Assembly (NCBI GenBank): GCA_049512335.1
Contig: JBEKXE010000001.1
Span: forward strand, 56,987-120,986
Direction: 5' to 3'
DNA: 64,000 bases
Source: Candidatus Lustribacter sp.
Lineage (GTDB): Bacteria > Vulcanimicrobiota > Vulcanimicrobiia > Vulcanimicrobiales > Vulcanimicrobiaceae
The notes below the pieces were generated by a model, which did no database searches, was not told the DNA's origin, and worked only from the letters and a program-made list of their open reading frames with translations. Made by a program: the position numbers and the translations under genes. Below are positions 32,432-39,394 of this stretch, piece after piece. How positions within the stretch are numbered: position 1 is the first letter of the stretch; every line of letters starts with the position of its first letter.

Positions 32432-32606
32432 TGCTTTTGGGGGCACCGATGGGAATCTACGGCGAGCCACAAAGTCAAGCCGGCTGAGGCAGCAAGCTGA
32501 CGCGGGAATCAGTATGGGCTCGATCTATCGTCATGACGGCCTGTGGGTAAACTGTCGATAACATGTGCATGAGGGCTTGCTTGCCGCAGCGAAGGTGTGC
32601 GTCGGC

Positions 32607-33350
32607 GTGAAAATCGACTACCGCGATCCGCCGGTGAGCGAGACGTCCGTGGGCGTTGGATTTGCACCTCTTCCGGGCTGGGACGTCCACCTTTTCGGGG
32701 AGGTCCTCGAAGCCGTGAAGACCCGGTACCCGCGCTTCGAGGCTGCACCGCCGCTGTCGATGCCGACCCCAGGATTGGCCTTTCGTTTTTCCGCCGTGCC
32801 CCTTACCCGCGGGCTCTATTTTTCGGCTAACAATACGCAGCTGATTCAGGTGCAGGACAATCTGTTTTTCGTAAACTGGCGCAAATGGCCGCCGGAGAAC
32901 CTCTATCCGCATTACGGTGCGTTACGCTCGCGTTTCGGAGAGGACTGGGGCGCCTTTTGCTCTGTACTCGCCCGCTTTGGAATTCCGCTCCCAGTATTGT
33001 CTCGATATCAGTTGGCGTATGTGAACGTTGTTCCGCACGCTGCCGTTCGCCCGAGCGAGTTGTTTACCAGTTGGATGCCACCCGAAGGCGTTGAGCAATC
33101 CGACATCACTATAAACACTACGTACCGCCTCCCGGATCGCGGTGTCGATGTCGCTCTATCGCTACAACCGGGCCTTCGGGTTGAGGATAATCAGCGGGTA
33201 TCTCAATTGACGATCGTCGTTGGACGCAATGCGCCGCACTCGAGCGACCCTGCGGACCACTTTGACGACCTTCACGATGTGTTGATCGAAACTTTCCAGT
33301 CCGTTACTAGCGAAAACGCTCAACAGACATGGGGACCACAAAATGAGTAG
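32607..33350 (+). CDS. TIGR04255-like protein (sporadically distributed family of unknown function); first gene of the low-GC cassette
   Basis: N-terminal IDYRDPPVSETSVGVGF and LIQVQDNLFFVNWRKW...YPHY match my recollection of the TIGR04255 pattern. The ORF track starts at 32565 (ATG); an in-frame GTG at 32607 gives the family-typical short N-terminus. Confidence 0.5.
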   Translation: MKIDYRDPPVSETSVGVGFAPLPGWDVHLFGEVLEAVKTRYPRFEAAPPLSMPTPGLAFRFSAVPLTRGLYFSANNTQLIQVQDNLFFVNWRKWPPENLYPHYGALRSRFGEDWGAFCSVLARFGIPLPVLSRYQLAYVNVVPHAAVRPSELFTSWMPPEGVEQSDITINTTYRLPDRGVDVALSLQPGLRVEDNQRVSQLTIVVGRNAPHSSDPADHFDDLHDVLIETFQSVTSENAQQTWGPQNE

Positions 33351-33831
33351 TACGATCGTTGACGTACTCACGTCACTCGACCTTCGGCGACCAAGTCAAC
33401 CGCCGCCAACCTTTCCTAATGGCTTCGACGATCAAATACTCGCTGTCACGCCGGACCTTTTGACTCTCGTTCACGAGGAATTTGCACGGCTTGCCGAATT
33501 CCGCCGCCTTCCCTTAGATTGGGACCACGAAGGCGGTGTGGCGATGACTGCGGATGCGAGTGCATCTGCGCAAAGAGTTTTGCGCGCGTTTGCCGCGATC
33601 GCGGGATTTGTGCCGCAAGTCGTTCCCAGTCATGCTGGCGGAGCGCTCATCGAAGTTTGTACCGACAACCTAGGCGTCGACTTTGAGATTTCGCCGCTCG
33701 GAGATATAGAGTTCTTGGTGTCTCGTGGGCACGAAGACCTTGAGGGAACAATTCGAGCAGCGCAGGTACCCGCGCTGTTGCAAACGTTATACGTAAATAA
33801 GCGGAATGAGACCCTAGGGCTAAGCGCCTAA
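33343..33831 (+). CDS. Hypothetical protein (162 aa), second gene of the low-GC cassette
   Basis: ATG preceded by GGGGA. Overlaps the upstream stop by 8 nt (ATGAGTAG). I recognise no family. Confidence 0.6.
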   Translation: MSSTIVDVLTSLDLRRPSQPPPTFPNGFDDQILAVTPDLLTLVHEEFARLAEFRRLPLDWDHEGGVAMTADASASAQRVLRAFAAIAGFVPQVVPSHAGGALIEVCTDNLGVDFEISPLGDIEFLVSRGHEDLEGTIRAAQVPALLQTLYVNKRNETLGLSA

Positions 33832-33836
33832 GACGA

Positions 33837-34205
33837 TTGGAGTCGGACGATCGGCGGGGCGTCGTCTGGCGATTCGTGCACCCTAGCCAAATCATTAAGG
33901 ACGCGGACGGGACACTGACTGTCTCGAGCGGCGTTTTCCGGCGTAGCGATGGCGGCGCGTTCTCGATTTTCTTTGCCGAGCGTTCCGACATATTGGAGCT
34001 TCGTCATGCATTCGAGGGCTCTACGCTCGTGGCCGTGAGAGAATCGGATTTACGCAGGCTCGGTTTTGTCGTCAACCCATGCCCGGCCGATCGGGGGATT
34101 CGATCAGAACACGCAGACTGTATACATCCAGGGGGAAGCAAGGAGCGGAAGCGCGCTGCGCAAGCATTAAGAGACAAGTGCTGGATTGTAGGGCCCGAGA
34201 TCTGA
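33837..34205 (+). CDS. Hypothetical protein (122 aa), third gene of the low-GC cassette
   Basis: TTG start 5 nt after the upstream stop. I recognise no family. Contains the His/Cys-containing segment SEHADCIHPGG. Confidence 0.5.
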   Translation: MESDDRRGVVWRFVHPSQIIKDADGTLTVSSGVFRRSDGGAFSIFFAERSDILELRHAFEGSTLVAVRESDLRRLGFVVNPCPADRGIRSEHADCIHPGGSKERKRAAQALRDKCWIVGPEI

Positions 34206-34242
34206 GATCGAATTGAGTATCTCGCGCGAGGCGTCAGCGCGA

Positions 34243-35943
34243 TCAATACACCGGCGAGCCCGGCGCGCCGGGTGCGACGCTGCCGTCGTCTTGCGCGAAG
34301 ACCAACCGCAACGGGTACGACGATCCGCCTTCGGGCATCGTCGTGACCTGCAGCGTGCGGTAGGTGCCCGGCGCGATCGTCTCTTGCCAGATCTTGTAGC
34401 GTGAGAACGCCGCCAGGCGATGGGCTTGCACGAGCGTGTCGTCGATGATGAACGTGCCGGTCGCGTCGCCGCCGCGCGGGTTGGCGTAGAGCGCGATCGC
34501 TTGGCCGAAGCGCGACGTGTTGACGATCACGACGCGCACCGACTGCATCACGCCGTAATCGCCGGAGAGCGCTTCACCTTCGCGCAGGTTGGGCAGCGGC
34601 AGCTGGCCGATCGGGATCTCGAGCGGCGGCGCGTCGGTGAAGAACGTGTAGTCCGAGAAGAACTCGGGCACCGGGTAGACGCCGCGCGCGTGCGGCGCGC
34701 CGCCGGCCAGCAGATTCGCCGCGTCGGCCGACTGGTCGAGCGGCGCGTCGGCGTGCTGCGCCACCACCGCGATGTCGAGCGGATCGCCGCTGATCTCGCG
34801 CAGCTGCAGGATGCCGTTGACGACCGCGTTCGGCGGGAGATCGTGGTTGACGATGTTCACGGTCGCGCCGGGCGGGATCGTCACGATCGTGCCTTCGTTG
34901 CGCCGCGCGCGGACCAGGAACGTGCGCGTCGCGTTGTGGCCGACCTCCATCTCGTTCGCGCCCGGTCCGGCGAGCGCCGCGATCACGTGCAAGACGGCCG
35001 GCGTCGCCGCGCCGTTGGTCGCTTTGACCAAGACGCGGCGCTCGGGTTCGGTCCCCGGATTGAAGTGGTAGTACAGGAAGCGCTGCGAGGCCGTGCGGTC
35101 GATCGTGGCGGTGAACAGCACGCCGTCGGCGGTCAGGCGTTCGGGATAGTCGCTCACCAACAGCCGGCGCGGCGCCAGCCGGGGCAGCGCCACGTTCTCG
35201 AGCGCGATGCGCGTCGTTCCGCTGACCGTGATGTAAGCGTCGCCGAGGATCTGCACCGGAACGTCGATCTCCATGCGATCGTCGGGCGCCAGCGGCGCGT
35301 GCACGATGACGGCATCGGCCGGCACGTAGATGCGGGCCCCCGGCCGCAGCGTGGCGGCCGCTTCGGCCGCGTCGATCGCGGCGGCGCGCAAGAACTGCAC
35401 CGAAGCCGGATTGCCGGTCACGCGCAGCGGCAGCGCGGCCGCGACCGCGCCGGCGGCGTAGGCGACGCGCACCGCGACCTCGCGCGTGAGCCCGCGGCTG
35501 TCGCCGACGGTCACGATCGTGTTGCCGACCGCGACGCCGCTGATGGCGAGCTGGCGCTTGTCCGAATCGACGGCGACGGTGGCGATGGTCGGATCGGCGG
35601 AGGTCGCGGTGATCGTGCCGGCCGCGCTGTTGACGCGCGCGAGGATGGTCTGCCCCGGCTGCACGGACGGCGTCGGCGGCTCGACGACGATGGGCGGCTG
35701 CGTCGGGGTCGGCGACGGCGACGGGCTCGCGCTCGCTTCGGGTGAGGCGGATTCGCCGGGGGCGGGCGAGGCTTCGGTCGACGCCGGAGCGGGCGACTCG
35801 GCCGGCACGGCGGGCCCCGGAATCGCCGGGTTCACGGGGCCGGTCGGCGCCGGCACGGGCGGGTTGACCTGCGCGCTCACCGTCGAGGCGAGTACGGCGA
35901 CCAACGACCCCACCACGGCGAGCGCCGCGAACGCACGGTGCAA
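34243..35943 (-). CDS. Secreted protein with a Pro/Ala/Ser-rich linker, a Big_2-like Ig domain and a ~400-aa C-terminal domain of unknown function
   Basis: Signal peptide MHRAFAALAVVGSLVAVLASTVSAQV, a low-complexity P/A/S linker and an Ig-like segment (ITATSADPTIATVAVDSDKRQLAISGVAVGNTIVTVGD). Core-like GC content. Confidence 0.6.
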   Translation of the reverse strand: MHRAFAALAVVGSLVAVLASTVSAQVNPPVPAPTGPVNPAIPGPAVPAESPAPASTEASPAPGESASPEASASPSPSPTPTQPPIVVEPPTPSVQPGQTILARVNSAAGTITATSADPTIATVAVDSDKRQLAISGVAVGNTIVTVGDSRGLTREVAVRVAYAAGAVAAALPLRVTGNPASVQFLRAAAIDAAEAAATLRPGARIYVPADAVIVHAPLAPDDRMEIDVPVQILGDAYITVSGTTRIALENVALPRLAPRRLLVSDYPERLTADGVLFTATIDRTASQRFLYYHFNPGTEPERRVLVKATNGAATPAVLHVIAALAGPGANEMEVGHNATRTFLVRARRNEGTIVTIPPGATVNIVNHDLPPNAVVNGILQLREISGDPLDIAVVAQHADAPLDQSADAANLLAGGAPHARGVYPVPEFFSDYTFFTDAPPLEIPIGQLPLPNLREGEALSGDYGVMQSVRVVIVNTSRFGQAIALYANPRGGDATGTFIIDDTLVQAHRLAAFSRYKIWQETIAPGTYRTLQVTTMPEGGSSYPLRLVFAQDDGSVAPGAPGSPVY

Positions 35944-35973: not shown

Positions 35974-37608
35974 TTAGGCGATCTTCATCTCGCGCGACAC
36001 GGCCGATGCCAGCAACGTCTTGTACCCGACGGCCGGGAACAATACGGTTACGAGGTCCTTCTCGGCGCGCTCGACCGTGCCTTGCCCGAACTTCGAATGA
36101 TACACGACGTCGGCGATGCCGTAGCCGGAAATCGATTGGTCGCGGCGCCCTTGCAGGCAGTTCTCGCATGCGCCGCACGAGTCGGCGGTGAAATTCTCGC
36201 CGAAGTAGTTCAGGATGAAGCGCCGCCGGCAGCCGGTCGTTTCGGCGTACTGCAGCATCATCGCGAGCTTGGACTGGTCGTAGCGCTTCTTGGTCTCGTA
36301 ATTCGCCAGATCGAGCACCGCCTCGCGGCTGGCGTGCCGCGCCAGCACGTACTTCGCGCGCGCCGACGCTTCGATGAAGCCGGCCTTCTTCAGCAGCGCC
36401 AGCACGACTTTCAGCTTGGTCAGCGGCAGCTGCGTGATCTTGCGCAGGTCGGTGAGCGAAACGCCGCCCTCCTGCATGCCGAAGATCTCGAGCGTGCCGA
36501 AGACGCGCTGCACTTCCTCGATGTCGGGATACTTGCCGGTGAGGAAGTAGTTCTGCACGCGCGTGTCGCTCATGCGGTAGACCAGGATGCACTTCGACGG
36601 CTCGCCGTCGCGCCCGGCGCGCCCCGCCTCTTGCGTGTAGGCCTCGATCGAGCCCGGCAGATCGTAATGCACGACGAAGCGGATGTTCGGCTTGTCGATG
36701 CCCAGACCGAACGCGTTGGTCGCGACCACCGCGCGGATCGCTTCTTGCATGAACAACTCGTGCACCGCGACGCGATCGTGCTTCTGCAGTTTGGAGTGAT
36801 AGACCGCGGCCGGAATCTCGAGCTGATCTTGCAGATACTTCTGCACCTCGAGCGCATTCTTGATCGTCGCGGTGTAGATGATCCCGGTGCCTTCCAGGGC
36901 GTTGTTCTCGAAGAGCGCTTTGAGCGCGCGCAATTTGCCCGCTTCGTTCTCGGCGCGGCGCACGCTGTAGATTAAGTTCGGGCGGTCGAACCCGCGCACG
37001 ATCGGCTTCACGTCGGGTACGCCCAACTGCGCGAGGATGTCCTCGCGCACCGCCGGCGTGGCGGTTGCGGTCAGCGCCAGCACGGTCGGCCCGCCGAGCG
37101 CCTTGATCACGCGGCCGAGGTTGAGATAGGCCGGCCGGAAGTCATGGCCCCACTGACTGATGCAGTGCGCTTCGTCGATGACGAACAGCGGCACGGTCAG
37201 GCTCTGCAGGATCGCGACGAACGCGTCGTCCTCGAGCTTTTCCGGCGTGACGAAGACGATCTTCATCGCGCCCGACGCGATGCGCGCGAGCGCCGCGGCT
37301 TCCTGATCTTCGCTCAAGGTCGAGTTGAGGGCGACCGTCTCGCGCACGCCGTGCGACTCGAGCATGTCGAGCTGATCTTTCATCAGCGCTATGAGCGGGG
37401 AGACGACGACCGTGGTGCCGGGCAGCATCAGGGCCGGCAACTGGTAGCACAGCGACTTGCCGGCTCCGGTGGCCAAGATCGCCAGCGTGTCCTCCCCGGC
37501 CAGGACGCGGGTGATCACTTCCTCCTGGCCGGGGTTGAAGGTGTCGTATCCAAAACGCTCGCGCAGCGCAGCGTAGAGATCCACGGGACTCTCCCAAACG
37601 ATGATCAT
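35974..37608 (-). CDS. recQ: ATP-dependent DNA helicase RecQ
   Basis: GAGKSLCYQLPA, DEAH box FVIDEAHCISQWGHDFRP, TNAFGLGIDKPN, QEAGRAGRDG and a Zn-binding Cys cluster (CRRR...CGACENC). Confidence 0.9.
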   Translation of the reverse strand: MIIVWESPVDLYAALRERFGYDTFNPGQEEVITRVLAGEDTLAILATGAGKSLCYQLPALMLPGTTVVVSPLIALMKDQLDMLESHGVRETVALNSTLSEDQEAAALARIASGAMKIVFVTPEKLEDDAFVAILQSLTVPLFVIDEAHCISQWGHDFRPAYLNLGRVIKALGGPTVLALTATATPAVREDILAQLGVPDVKPIVRGFDRPNLIYSVRRAENEAGKLRALKALFENNALEGTGIIYTATIKNALEVQKYLQDQLEIPAAVYHSKLQKHDRVAVHELFMQEAIRAVVATNAFGLGIDKPNIRFVVHYDLPGSIEAYTQEAGRAGRDGEPSKCILVYRMSDTRVQNYFLTGKYPDIEEVQRVFGTLEIFGMQEGGVSLTDLRKITQLPLTKLKVVLALLKKAGFIEASARAKYVLARHASREAVLDLANYETKKRYDQSKLAMMLQYAETTGCRRRFILNYFGENFTADSCGACENCLQGRRDQSISGYGIADVVYHSKFGQGTVERAEKDLVTVLFPAVGYKTLLASAVSREMKIA

Positions 37609-37744
37609 GGGCGACGTTCGAAGCCCCCTTCCTAAAAGGGGGCGACGCCGTCGCCAATCGACGGCCGGTATATTCCCCTACTTGGCCCCGCTCAAACGGT
37701 TGCGCAGGCCGGGATGGGCGGACTCCGGTCCGAAGCCACCGCCG

Positions 37745-39394
37745 GTGTCCCTCTATCGTACCTGGCGTCCCCTGACCTTCGCGAGCTTGGTTGGTCAGGA
37801 TGCGGTCGTGCGCACGCTCACAACGGCTATCGAGACGGGGAAGCTCGCCCATGCCTACCTGTTCTCGGGACCCCGCGGTTCGGGCAAAACCTCGGCCGCC
37901 AAGATCCTGGCGCGCTGCATCGAGTGCGTGAACGGTCCGACCGCGACCCCCGACAACACCTGTGCCAATTGCACGGCCATCCTCGACGGCACGGCGTTCG
38001 ACGTCGTCGAGATCGATGCGGCGTCCAATCGCGGCATCGATGAAATCCGGGCGCTGCGCGACGCGGTCAAATTTCCGCCGTCGGTGATGCGTTCGAAAGT
38101 CTACATCATCGACGAAGCGCACATGCTGACCAAAGAAGGCGCGAACGCGTTTCTGAAAACGCTCGAAGAGCCGCCGCCGCACGTCGTGTTCATCCTCGCG
38201 ACGACCTCGCCCGAAGCGTTGCCGCCGACGATCCTCTCACGCTGCCAGCGCTATGCCTTCCGGCGCATCCCGATCGAGGTGATGATCGCGAAGATGCGCG
38301 AGATCGCCGACGGCGAGAACATCGAGATCGACGACGCCGCGCTGGGCGCGCTCGCCTACCGCGCCGACGGCGGCTTGCGCGACGCCCTGACGATGCTCGA
38401 ACAAGTCGCGGCCTTCGGTGCCGGCCACGTCGACGCGGCCACCGTCGACGCCGCGTTCGGCCAGACGGGACGGGCGTTCGCGCTCGCGCTGCGCGACGAG
38501 TCGCTCGACGGGGATGCGGCCGCGGCGTTGCGCACGATCGACGACGCCAGCGATGCCGGCACCGACATGCCGGGGCTGATCCGCGCGCTGATCGGGGAGT
38601 TTCGCCACCTGCTCGTCGCGCGCGTCAATCCGGAATTGCTCGCGCGCGATCTGGCGGCCGACGATGCCGCGGCCGCGGCCGCCCGCGCGCAGAGCGTGCC
38701 GCAAGCGCGCATCGTGCGCGCCCTGCGCCTGTTCGGCGACGCGCTCGGGTCGGCGCGCAACTCCGGCAACGCCCGGCTCGAACTCGAGACCGCGCTGCTG
38801 CGCTTCGTCCTGCAGGCCGAGGATCCGGCGCTCGACGCGCTGGCCGCGCGCGTCACCGCGCTCGAAGGCGGCACGCCGGTGCCGGCGCCGCCGCCCCGCG
38901 TCGCGCCGCCCGCAGCGGTTCCGGCGCATCAGCCGGCGCCGGCCCGCCGCGCCGCTGCTCCGGCGCCACCGCCGGCGCCGCGACCCCAGCCGGAACCGGC
39001 ACCGTCACCGCCCCCGGCGCGGTCCGCGCCGGCCATTCCGGTCGTGGGCGCCCTGACGCCGGCCAAGGTGCGCTCGTTGTGGGCGAACGTCCGCGCGCGC
39101 GCCGAGAGCGAGAAGCCGTCGATGGCCGCCTCGCTCGGCCGGGCGACGATCGAATCGGCAACCGACGACGCGATCACGCTGCGCATGCCCGATTCGACCG
39201 GCGGGGAAACGCTCAAGCGCAGCCTCGACGTGCTCAAACGCGCCGTCGACGGCGTGATCGGACGGCCGATCGAGGTGCGGGTCGTCGTCGGCGCGCCGGC
39301 CGCTCCGGCGGCGAGCGATCCGGCGGCGGACGGCGAACTCCCCGAAGAGCATCCCGACGACGTCGCGCGGTACGCGTTCGACCGGCTCCTCTGA
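37745..39394 (+). CDS. dnaX: DNA polymerase III subunit gamma/tau
   Basis: The GTG start gives VSLYRTWRPLTFASLVGQDAV. GPRGSGKTS, Zn module CIECVNGPTATPDNTCANC, IIDEAHMLT and a Pro/Ala-rich linker. The ORF-track start at 37601 lies in the divergent promoter region. Confidence 0.9.
   Translation: MSLYRTWRPLTFASLVGQDAVVRTLTTAIETGKLAHAYLFSGPRGSGKTSAAKILARCIECVNGPTATPDNTCANCTAILDGTAFDVVEIDAASNRGIDEIRALRDAVKFPPSVMRSKVYIIDEAHMLTKEGANAFLKTLEEPPPHVVFILATTSPEALPPTILSRCQRYAFRRIPIEVMIAKMREIADGENIEIDDAALGALAYRADGGLRDALTMLEQVAAFGAGHVDAATVDAAFGQTGRAFALALRDESLDGDAAAALRTIDDASDAGTDMPGLIRALIGEFRHLLVARVNPELLARDLAADDAAAAAARAQSVPQARIVRALRLFGDALGSARNSGNARLELETALLRFVLQAEDPALDALAARVTALEGGTPVPAPPPRVAPPAAVPAHQPAPARRAAAPAPPPAPRPQPEPAPSPPPARSAPAIPVVGALTPAKVRSLWANVRARAESEKPSMAASLGRATIESATDDAITLRMPDSTGGETLKRSLDVLKRAVDGVIGRPIEVRVVVGAPAAPAASDPAADGELPEEHPDDVARYAFDRLL

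Follow-up and report, generated by a model that had tools for sequence, protein, structure and literature searches.

The 64,000-nucleotide stretch of DNA analyzed here (contig JBEKXE010000001.1, positions 56,987 to 120,986; hereafter the window) comes from Candidatus Lustribacter sp., of the phylum Eremiobacterota. It carries a compositionally foreign cassette of three tightly coupled open reading frames (ORFs), ORF1, ORF2, and ORF3, which recur together as one block both on plasmids and in bacteria that are unrelated. The cassette is best filed as a three-gene variant of the candidate system PDC-M32, anchored by a protein of the TIGR04255 family and including a gene family that annotation has missed. 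With a probability of roughly 45%, we propose that this island is a mobile tripartite toxin–antitoxin (TA)-like conflict module and a split variant of PDC-M32. The island is made up of the following features.

32432..32606, plus strand: noncoding leader of 175 nucleotides, the last ~45–50 of which travel with the cassette.
32607..33350, plus strand: ORF1, 247 residues, GTG start, a TIGR04255-family protein by profile match and the first gene of the operon.
33343..33831, plus strand: ORF2, 162 residues, isoelectric point (pI) 4.6, a stand-alone domain of the PDC-M32A C-terminal type; proposed neutralizer or adaptor.
33837..34205, plus strand: ORF3, 122 residues, TTG start, founding member of an unannotated family; proposed effector.
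34206..34242, no strand: right-edge spacer of 37 nucleotides, from the ORF3 stop to the stop of a convergent gene for a 566-residue secreted protein.

The foreign character of the cassette is supported by its composition. When 623 overlapping 1.8-kb segments were scanned across the window, the segment 32401–34200 had the lowest GC content (0.570 versus a mean of 0.682, z = -3.4) and also ranked first in tetranucleotide distance from the whole window (z = 5.1). The sliding GC content drops from 0.72–0.77 in the upstream glycosyltransferase (GT4) gene to 0.53–0.60 over 32650–34300 and then returns to 0.70–0.77. Likewise, the GC content of third codon positions (GC3) is 0.63, 0.54, and 0.63 in ORF1, ORF2, and ORF3, respectively, as compared with 0.87–0.92 in six neighboring genes. 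A preliminary description of this DNA had reported a sharp GC fall, with four 60-nucleotide counts, and a shift in codon choice; the counts (34/60, 31/60, 46/60, and 43/60) were exact on recount, and the sliding GC, GC3, and tetranucleotide checks all agree that the island is the strongest outlier. The geometry that it gave, three plus-strand ORFs with an 8-nucleotide overlap, a 5-nucleotide gap, and a 175-nucleotide leader, was also confirmed, and the view of the trio as a tightly coupled operon of nonhousekeeping genes is supported.

All three ORFs are real and under purifying selection. Diverged copies with 67–87% amino acid identity are present on the metagenomic contigs L011, L012/L013, L014, and L015, and the pairwise ratio of nonsynonymous to synonymous substitution rates (dN/dS) is 0.07–0.09 for ORF1 (against three diverged copies), 0.09–0.17 for ORF2, and 0.06–0.18 for ORF3 (full-length comparisons). 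Because the ratio is low in every case (0.06–0.18), each of the three is taken to be a genuine gene. ORF3 is intact in L011 and L012, with a length of 122–123 residues and an amino acid identity of 72–75%, and its reading frame, its length, and the position of its TTG or GTG start are all conserved. Together with dN/dS, this conservation rules out that ORF3 is a spurious ORF.

The three genes keep each other's company. All seven of the ORF2-family representatives that were looked up (P0010, P0011, P0012, P0014, P0018, P0030, and P0045, on contigs with a GC content of 0.49–0.64) have a TIGR04255 gene immediately before them and an ORF3-like ORF immediately after. A tblastn search with ORF1 against 72,556 plasmids gave a single match, on a 306-kb plasmid of Mycobacterium paragordonae (L016), in which a TIGR04255 gene followed by two overlapping hypothetical genes lies immediately downstream of mobF, the gene of a MobF relaxase; the middle gene of this trio matches ORF2 with E = 2e-6. 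A GTDB scan added further trios in one Mycolicibacterium and one Acidimicrobiales genome, and scans of genomes and metagenomes with TIGR04255 alignments returned 4 and 3 loci, respectively. Every trio examined contains all three genes, and the gene junctions measure -14 to +9 nucleotides in nearly all of them, so that the trio is shown to be translationally coupled. The gap between ORF2 and ORF3 is 5 nucleotides in the window, -4 to +9 nucleotides in most trios, and +29 nucleotides in L028. In this way the co-occurrence of the three families as neighbors in unrelated genomes, which the preliminary description had put forward for checking, was borne out by the seven representatives, the plasmid, and the Mycolicibacterium and Acidimicrobiales genomes.

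The cassette has been found in many surroundings, comprising L011, L015, the plasmid L016, L017, L018, L024–L028, L037, and L038. Among its close relatives, the one in L011 sits beside a serine recombinase (Pfam Resolvase) and the one in L015 lies in an unrelated context. On the left, when the DNA of four cassettes, drawn from at least three contexts, was aligned, only the last ~45–50 nucleotides of the leader (about 32558–32606) proved to be conserved, and blastn homology starts at 32566 for L011 and at 32578 for L015. On the right, homology with cassettes in other contexts ends at about 34191–34205. Since the homology spans ~45 nucleotides before the ORF1 start to the ORF3 stop, the mobile unit is just the operon. 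A further ~30 nucleotides of the leader (AAACTGTCGATAACATG.GCATGAGGG) are common only to the window and the syntenic relative L012. The leader contains no consensus sigma-70 promoter and has no Rfam match. In L011, the serine recombinase and an ORF of 55 residues lie directly upstream of the cassette (22–836), and the 55-residue ORF overlaps the ORF1 start by 4 nucleotides.

Of the features by which genomic islands are recognized, atypical composition and unrelated contexts were found here, and local mobility genes, tRNAs, or direct repeats were not. The whole 64-kb window has no tRNA, there is no Rfam match, and searches for tandem and flanking repeats revealed nothing relevant and no convincing flanking repeat at the island. 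The preliminary description had likewise noted the lack of mobility signals, and its statement holds for tRNAs, convincing repeats, and mobile-element genes nearby.

The history of the insertion can be read at the junction between the GT4 gene and the gene for the secreted protein. In a relative that is ~27% diverged in DNA (L012/L013), the cassette has the same GT4 3' end on its left and the same convergent stop on its right; all same-species contigs carry it as well, and L012/L013 was the only other relative recovered for this junction. Comparing the window with positions 1–2135 of L012, the proportions of nonsynonymous and synonymous differences (pN and pS) are 0.14 and 0.50 in the GT4 fragment (GC3 0.74–0.88) and 0.12–0.17 and 0.57–0.66 in the cassette genes (GC3 0.54–0.66). 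Cassette and flank thus appear to have diverged together, and the insertion is old. A recent acquisition is ruled out by the shared junction in the ~27% diverged relative and by a divergence approximately equal to that of the flanking GT4 gene. The cassettes beside the serine recombinase in L011 and in the unrelated context of L015 are equally diverged. Although the insertion is old, the GC3 of the cassette (0.54–0.66) shows no drift toward that of the host genes (0.74–0.92). The comparison of the junction in related genomes, which had been suggested before, therefore found the cassette in L012/L013 and in same-species contigs and, in addition, elsewhere in unrelated contexts. Horizontal acquisition, as first supposed, is in keeping with the foreign composition and with movement as a unit, while its being recent is not.

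ORF1 is the one protein of the trio with a curated family. The NCBIfam model TIGR04255 matches it with E = 7.2e-12 and 45.7 bits over profile positions 2–252 of 252, above the curated cut-off of 30 bits, and on both its score and its full-length coverage ORF1 is classed as a TIGR04255 member. In the 261-residue reading of ORF1, residues 19–257 align to profile positions 2–252. The NCBI-annotated TIGR04255 protein of M. paragordonae matches ORF1 in pairwise BLASTP with E = 9e-20, and the first genes of the other trios also score full-length above the cut-off. Among nine members of the ORF1 family, the invariant columns include P8, P9, E12, G16, R68, Q81, and Q83, as well as N90, W91, R92, Y100, and P101. 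ORF1 had no matches in Pfam, PADLOC, PHROGs, or PDB sequences. The start of the gene had been left at either 32607 or 32565. Homologues are 245–247 residues long, and the conserved stretch upstream of 32607 is noncoding because it shows 1-nucleotide indels between cassettes; these two observations rule out 32565 and leave the GTG at 32607.

TIGR04255 carries the label 'sporadTIGR04255' with function unknown in NCBIfam, and no paper in the searchable literature mentions it. In that literature neither a function nor partners have been described for the family; the subgroup to which ORF1 belongs always precedes an ORF2-like and an ORF3-like gene, so that a curated orphan family gains a reproducible genomic setting and, in this one subgroup, two obligate partners. 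Other TIGR04255 members (L019, L020, and L022) are also first in small operons, with different small genes downstream. In a metagenome-assembled genome (MAG) of Myxococcales (L019, 4971–8781), the TIGR04255 operon has different second and third genes and is directly followed by Septu PtuA and PtuB (E = 2.6e-121 and 8.4e-53, respectively). The operon in a deltaproteobacterial MAG (L020, 3807–9922) is flanked by a phage-integrase-like gene on one side and, on the other, by a large SNF2 helicase with matches to PADLOC models of the ZorD/DpdE type. A HEPN domain was considered for the third gene in both L019 and L020, that of L020 being HEPN-like by eye, and the assignment was rejected as it had no Pfam or PADLOC support.

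ORF2 provides the first link to PDC-M32. This system is listed as a 'phage defence candidate' in PADLOC-DB v2 and consists of two genes, A and B (Payne et al., bioRxiv 10.1101/2024.01.29.577857); the set to which it belongs comprises 145 untested candidates, taken from genes that lie inside BREX, DISARM, and type I restriction–modification loci (bioRxiv 10.1101/2024.01.29.577857). In the searchable literature, PDC-M32 appears only in the PADLOC annotation table of prophages in one paper. The PADLOC model of PDC-M32A matches ORF2 with E = 7.2e-8, limited to model positions 259–346 of 384, and an hhalign comparison of the ORF2 family with genuine PDC-M32A proteins gave a probability of 98.5% and E = 1.7e-15. 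ORF2 is thus homologous to the C-terminal ~100-residue domain of PDC-M32A; a full-length match to the ~375–384-residue model was not obtained.

When 1.84 billion representative proteins were scanned in full with HMMER, 49 relatives of ORF2 were obtained at E ≤ 1e-3. Most of them are 110–190 residues long and have the motifs L..LP.NWD.xG and P.V.P...GG.xLEW in common. Pfam gave nothing for ORF2 or for the 49 family members, and neither NCBIfam, PHROGs, nor PDB sequences gave a match to ORF2. The AlphaFold2 model of ORF2 is confident, with a predicted local distance difference test score (pLDDT) of 85, and shows two helices, a sheet of five strands, and a helix at the C terminus. Foldseek found no significant match to it in the PDB (best E = 0.35, a contact-dependent inhibition immunity protein), and its neighbors in BFVD are uncharacterized phage proteins only (best E = 8e-4, template modeling score 0.70). 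ORF2-like proteins are acidic (pI 4.6–5.3) and always lie immediately upstream of the ORF3-like gene, which gives ORF2 an antitoxin-like appearance.

The ORF2-like domain was also seen fused to other N-terminal domains and as tandem copies. One metagenomic protein of 425 residues (P0033) contains two tandem domains of the ORF2-like, PDC-M32A C-terminal type. On a plasmid of Segatella copri (NZ_CP085934.1; L031, 3261–5342), the ORF2-like domain occurs alone, with no ORF3-like gene after it; the N terminus of that protein looks ribbon-helix-helix-like by eye only, and its gene adjoins a gene pair of which one is annotated as Panacea domain-containing.

ORF3 founds a family that had not been annotated. 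A hidden Markov model (HMM) built from three Eremiobacterota ORF3 sequences recovered the third genes of L024, L026, L028, and L025 among 988 ORFs, with E values from 3.5e-12 to 2.3e-4. A seven-sequence ORF3 profile aligned with the mycobacterial and Acidimicrobiales third genes by hhalign (91.4%, E = 8.9e-7, 117 columns) and also matched two trios outside its building set (E = 1.4e-5 and 2.1e-5). Arg12 and Ser43 are invariant in the family, and His92 is present in every complete sequence. No family in Pfam, NCBIfam, PADLOC, PHROGs, or the PDB sequence profiles matches ORF3, and PADLOC gave no match to it even at E ≤ 1. The third gene of L037, a member of the ORF3 family, matches the PADLOC PDC-M32B model PDLC04579 over its full length with E = 2.5e-4, and a broad ORF3 alignment matches PDC-M32B by hhalign with E = 5.7e-5 over 101 columns. 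Moreover, ORF3 and PDC-M32B have the same motif order, [LV][WY]R, AF, S, H, and a C-terminal basic helix, and both directly follow an ORF2-like domain. Homology between ORF3 and PDC-M32B is probable, though not proven, and ORF3 may be described as a small alpha/beta protein whose family, remotely related to PDC-M32B, had no earlier annotation. To call it an R-S-E ADP-ribosyltransferase or a barnase-like RNase would be speculation, drawn solely from a likeness of motifs and backed by neither a fold nor a profile.

Genes of the ORF3 type are systematically missed by gene callers. ORF3 itself was left uncalled on the same-species contigs, and its counterparts were missed in L001–L009, L034, L011, L012, L024, and L028. 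In L034, gene calling missed all three genes of the cassette, and in L012 and L028 an ORF on the opposite strand was called in place of the ORF3-type gene. The exact ORF3 protein is absent from a collection of ~15 billion catalogued proteins; as it is uncalled in many assemblies, the type is mostly missing from protein databases and is therefore invisible to protein-based mining of defense islands. The trio thereby exposes a hidden gene family that is conserved from Eremiobacterota to Actinomycetota.

Comparing the cassette with genuine PDC-M32 loci, it becomes clear where the two agree and where they differ. The plasmid pROB01 of Rhodococcus opacus carries a genuine pair, next to IS30 and integrases, with matches of E = 1.7e-48 for PDC-M32A (model positions 1–368 of 375) and E = 6.8e-17 for PDC-M32B. 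A tblastn search with pROB01 PDC-M32B found relatives on two further plasmids, Sinomonas pSA01, where a type I restriction R subunit is adjacent, and Rhizobium pRLN2; these pairs or relatives from Rhodococcus, Sinomonas, and Rhizobium all sit on mobilizable plasmids. Both systems have overlapping or very tight junctions, and both are found on mobile DNA. However, PDC-M32 consists of two genes, whereas the window cassette has three. The N-terminal part of PDC-M32A (~260 residues) is absent from the cassette, with the separate TIGR04255 gene ORF1 in its place, and the ORF2-like domain, which is fused to an N-terminal domain in PDC-M32A, is free-standing. The possibility that the PDC-M32A N-terminal domain is itself a fused TIGR04255 was discarded, since hhalign found no similarity. 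PDC-M32 thus gains a three-gene sister architecture, with a separate protein where PDC-M32A has its N-terminal domain, and this replacement offers a natural domain-swap experiment on which part senses and which part acts.

The cassette also resembles type II and tripartite TA systems. It is small, codirectional, and coupled, with an acidic protein encoded just ahead of one that is small and roughly neutral, and it is mobile, sporadic, and compositionally atypical. In contrast to those systems, neither a toxin nor an antitoxin of a known family was found in it, a DNA-binding domain is absent from ORF2, and its ~250-residue first gene has no counterpart in the tripartite TA systems that have been described. 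A compact, coupled pair of the type II kind is present in ORF2 and ORF3, and a known toxin or antitoxin family or domain was not found.

In the conflict module that we propose, which might act as an abortive-infection-type defense or in element addiction, ORF3 would be the effector, with an active site around the invariant arginine and serine and the conserved histidine. ORF2 would bind ORF3, keep it inactive, and tie it to ORF1. ORF1 would be the sensing or regulating subunit; at that position, classical PDC-M32 has a different ~260-residue N-terminal domain fused to the ORF2-like domain. This proposal is supported by the composition, the reality of the genes, the coupling, the co-occurrence, the mobility, the antitoxin-like features of ORF2, and the PDC-M32 links of ORF2 and ORF3, as well as by the TIGR04255 operons that lie beside Septu PtuA/PtuB or between an integrase and an SNF2 helicase. 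The plasmid surroundings of genuine PDC-M32 pairs and the derivation of the PDC candidates from defense loci count in its favor too. If defense or TA activity is demonstrated, the trio would be an additional system, with folds for which no relative has a solved structure.

Several points weigh against this proposal. The window neighbors are housekeeping genes (an S-layer homology (SLH) porin, GT4, RecQ, DnaX, YbaB, and RecR). The cassette has been kept at one chromosomal locus through a long divergence, which would fit any useful gene. The roles of the three proteins are assigned from gene order, size, and charge alone, and no toxicity, neutralization, or phage phenotype is known in the literature for the trio, PDC-M32, or any TIGR04255 protein. 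Searches with Pfam, NCBIfam, PHROGs, PDB sequences, and Foldseek turned up no toxin, antitoxin, or DNA-binding domain of a known kind, and PDB sequence searches with profiles of all the families gave chance-level matches only. The AlphaFold2 model of ORF3 is of low confidence (pLDDT 62, predicted template modeling score 0.60), and Foldseek matched nothing in the PDB to this weak model. Stricter ORF3 sets gave only partial alignments with PDC-M32B by hhalign (E = 0.0085–0.012, the value of 0.0085 being that of the seven-sequence set). PADLOC models detect neither ORF1 nor ORF3, and PADLOC would therefore not call the system in the window.

These results also bear on what the preliminary description had concluded. 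It had put the cassette forward as the best candidate for an undescribed system; the cassette is not entirely undescribed, as ORF1 belongs to a curated family and ORF2 matches PDC-M32A models. A mechanism is given by none of the folds, families, or papers. The database checks that it recommended turned out accordingly: Pfam found nothing in the three proteins; NCBIfam and PADLOC matched ORF1 to TIGR04255 and ORF2 to PDC-M32A, respectively, and left ORF3 unmatched; and AlphaFold models of ORF2 and ORF3 submitted to Foldseek had no significant fold in the PDB. Its guess of a defense module is favored by the relation of ORF2 and ORF3 to the candidate PDC-M32, whereas the window neighborhood contains no defense genes, which counts against it.

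The trio could instead be an addiction or stability module of plasmids or integrative elements with no antiviral role, the chromosomal copy being domesticated or a stranded remnant. Its place on the 306-kb Mycobacterium plasmid right after the MobF relaxase gene would suit such a role, as would the PDC-M32 pairs on the mobilizable plasmids, the serine recombinase adjoining a close cassette relative, and the compact, overlapping operon. However, there is no mobile-element gene, tRNA, or repeat near the cassette in the window, strong purifying selection acts at a fixed chromosomal site, where addiction is purposeless, and the PDC-M32 family was picked for its embedding in defense loci. We regard this explanation as rather unlikely. 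A similarly doubtful explanation is an accessory role outside conflict, in regulation, stress response, or the envelope, with the low GC content reflecting an old foreign origin or the tuning of expression. It draws on the same locus in two diverged lineages with a divergence equal to that of the flanking gene, on the low dN/dS in all three genes, on the cell-envelope and DNA-replication genes among the neighbors, and on the failure to find a toxin or nuclease signature. Against these observations stand the sporadic distribution across phyla, the shifting surroundings, among them plasmids, a recombinase, and integrases, the homology to a family embedded in restriction and BREX-type loci, and the variable partner genes behind TIGR04255, which are typical of conflict systems.

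An anti-defense or establishment module of conjugative elements, expressed early in a new host against restriction or other immunity, seems improbable. The position right after a relaxase gene can belong to the leading region of a plasmid, and the Mycobacterium trio is located directly after the relaxase gene in the same orientation; in addition, the ORF2 fold resembles only the uncharacterized phage proteins in BFVD. Nevertheless, 50,697 phage records and the IMG/VR contigs contain no relative of ORF1, ORF2, or PDC-M32A, the chromosomal copies are long-lived, and no similarity to any known anti-restriction family was found. The conflict module proposed above can also be widened. TIGR04255 might be a shared sensor or regulator combined with interchangeable two-gene effector modules, ORF2/ORF3 being one and the different pairs found in L019 (adjacent to Septu), L020, and L022 being others, which together would form a broad and unrecognized tripartite anti-phage class. 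As part of the same idea, ORF3 and PDC-M32B would represent a new effector fold with an Arg-Ser-(Glu)-His active site, overlooked largely because gene callers skip the ORF3 type. We regard this wider proposal, too, as rather unlikely.

Downstream of the cassette, the convergent gene on the minus strand (34243–35943) encodes the 566-residue protein, which has a signal-peptide-like N terminus and a linker rich in proline, alanine, and serine. For the called gene, no Pfam family is recorded and PADLOC gave no match, and the product is an uncharacterized and apparently lineage-specific secreted protein. The RecQ gene that follows on the minus strand (35974–37608) has an overall GC content of 0.64, below that of its neighbors, and a normal GC3 of 0.89. 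Because its GC3 is normal, the GC dip at 36000–38200 is attributed to amino acid composition rather than to foreign DNA.

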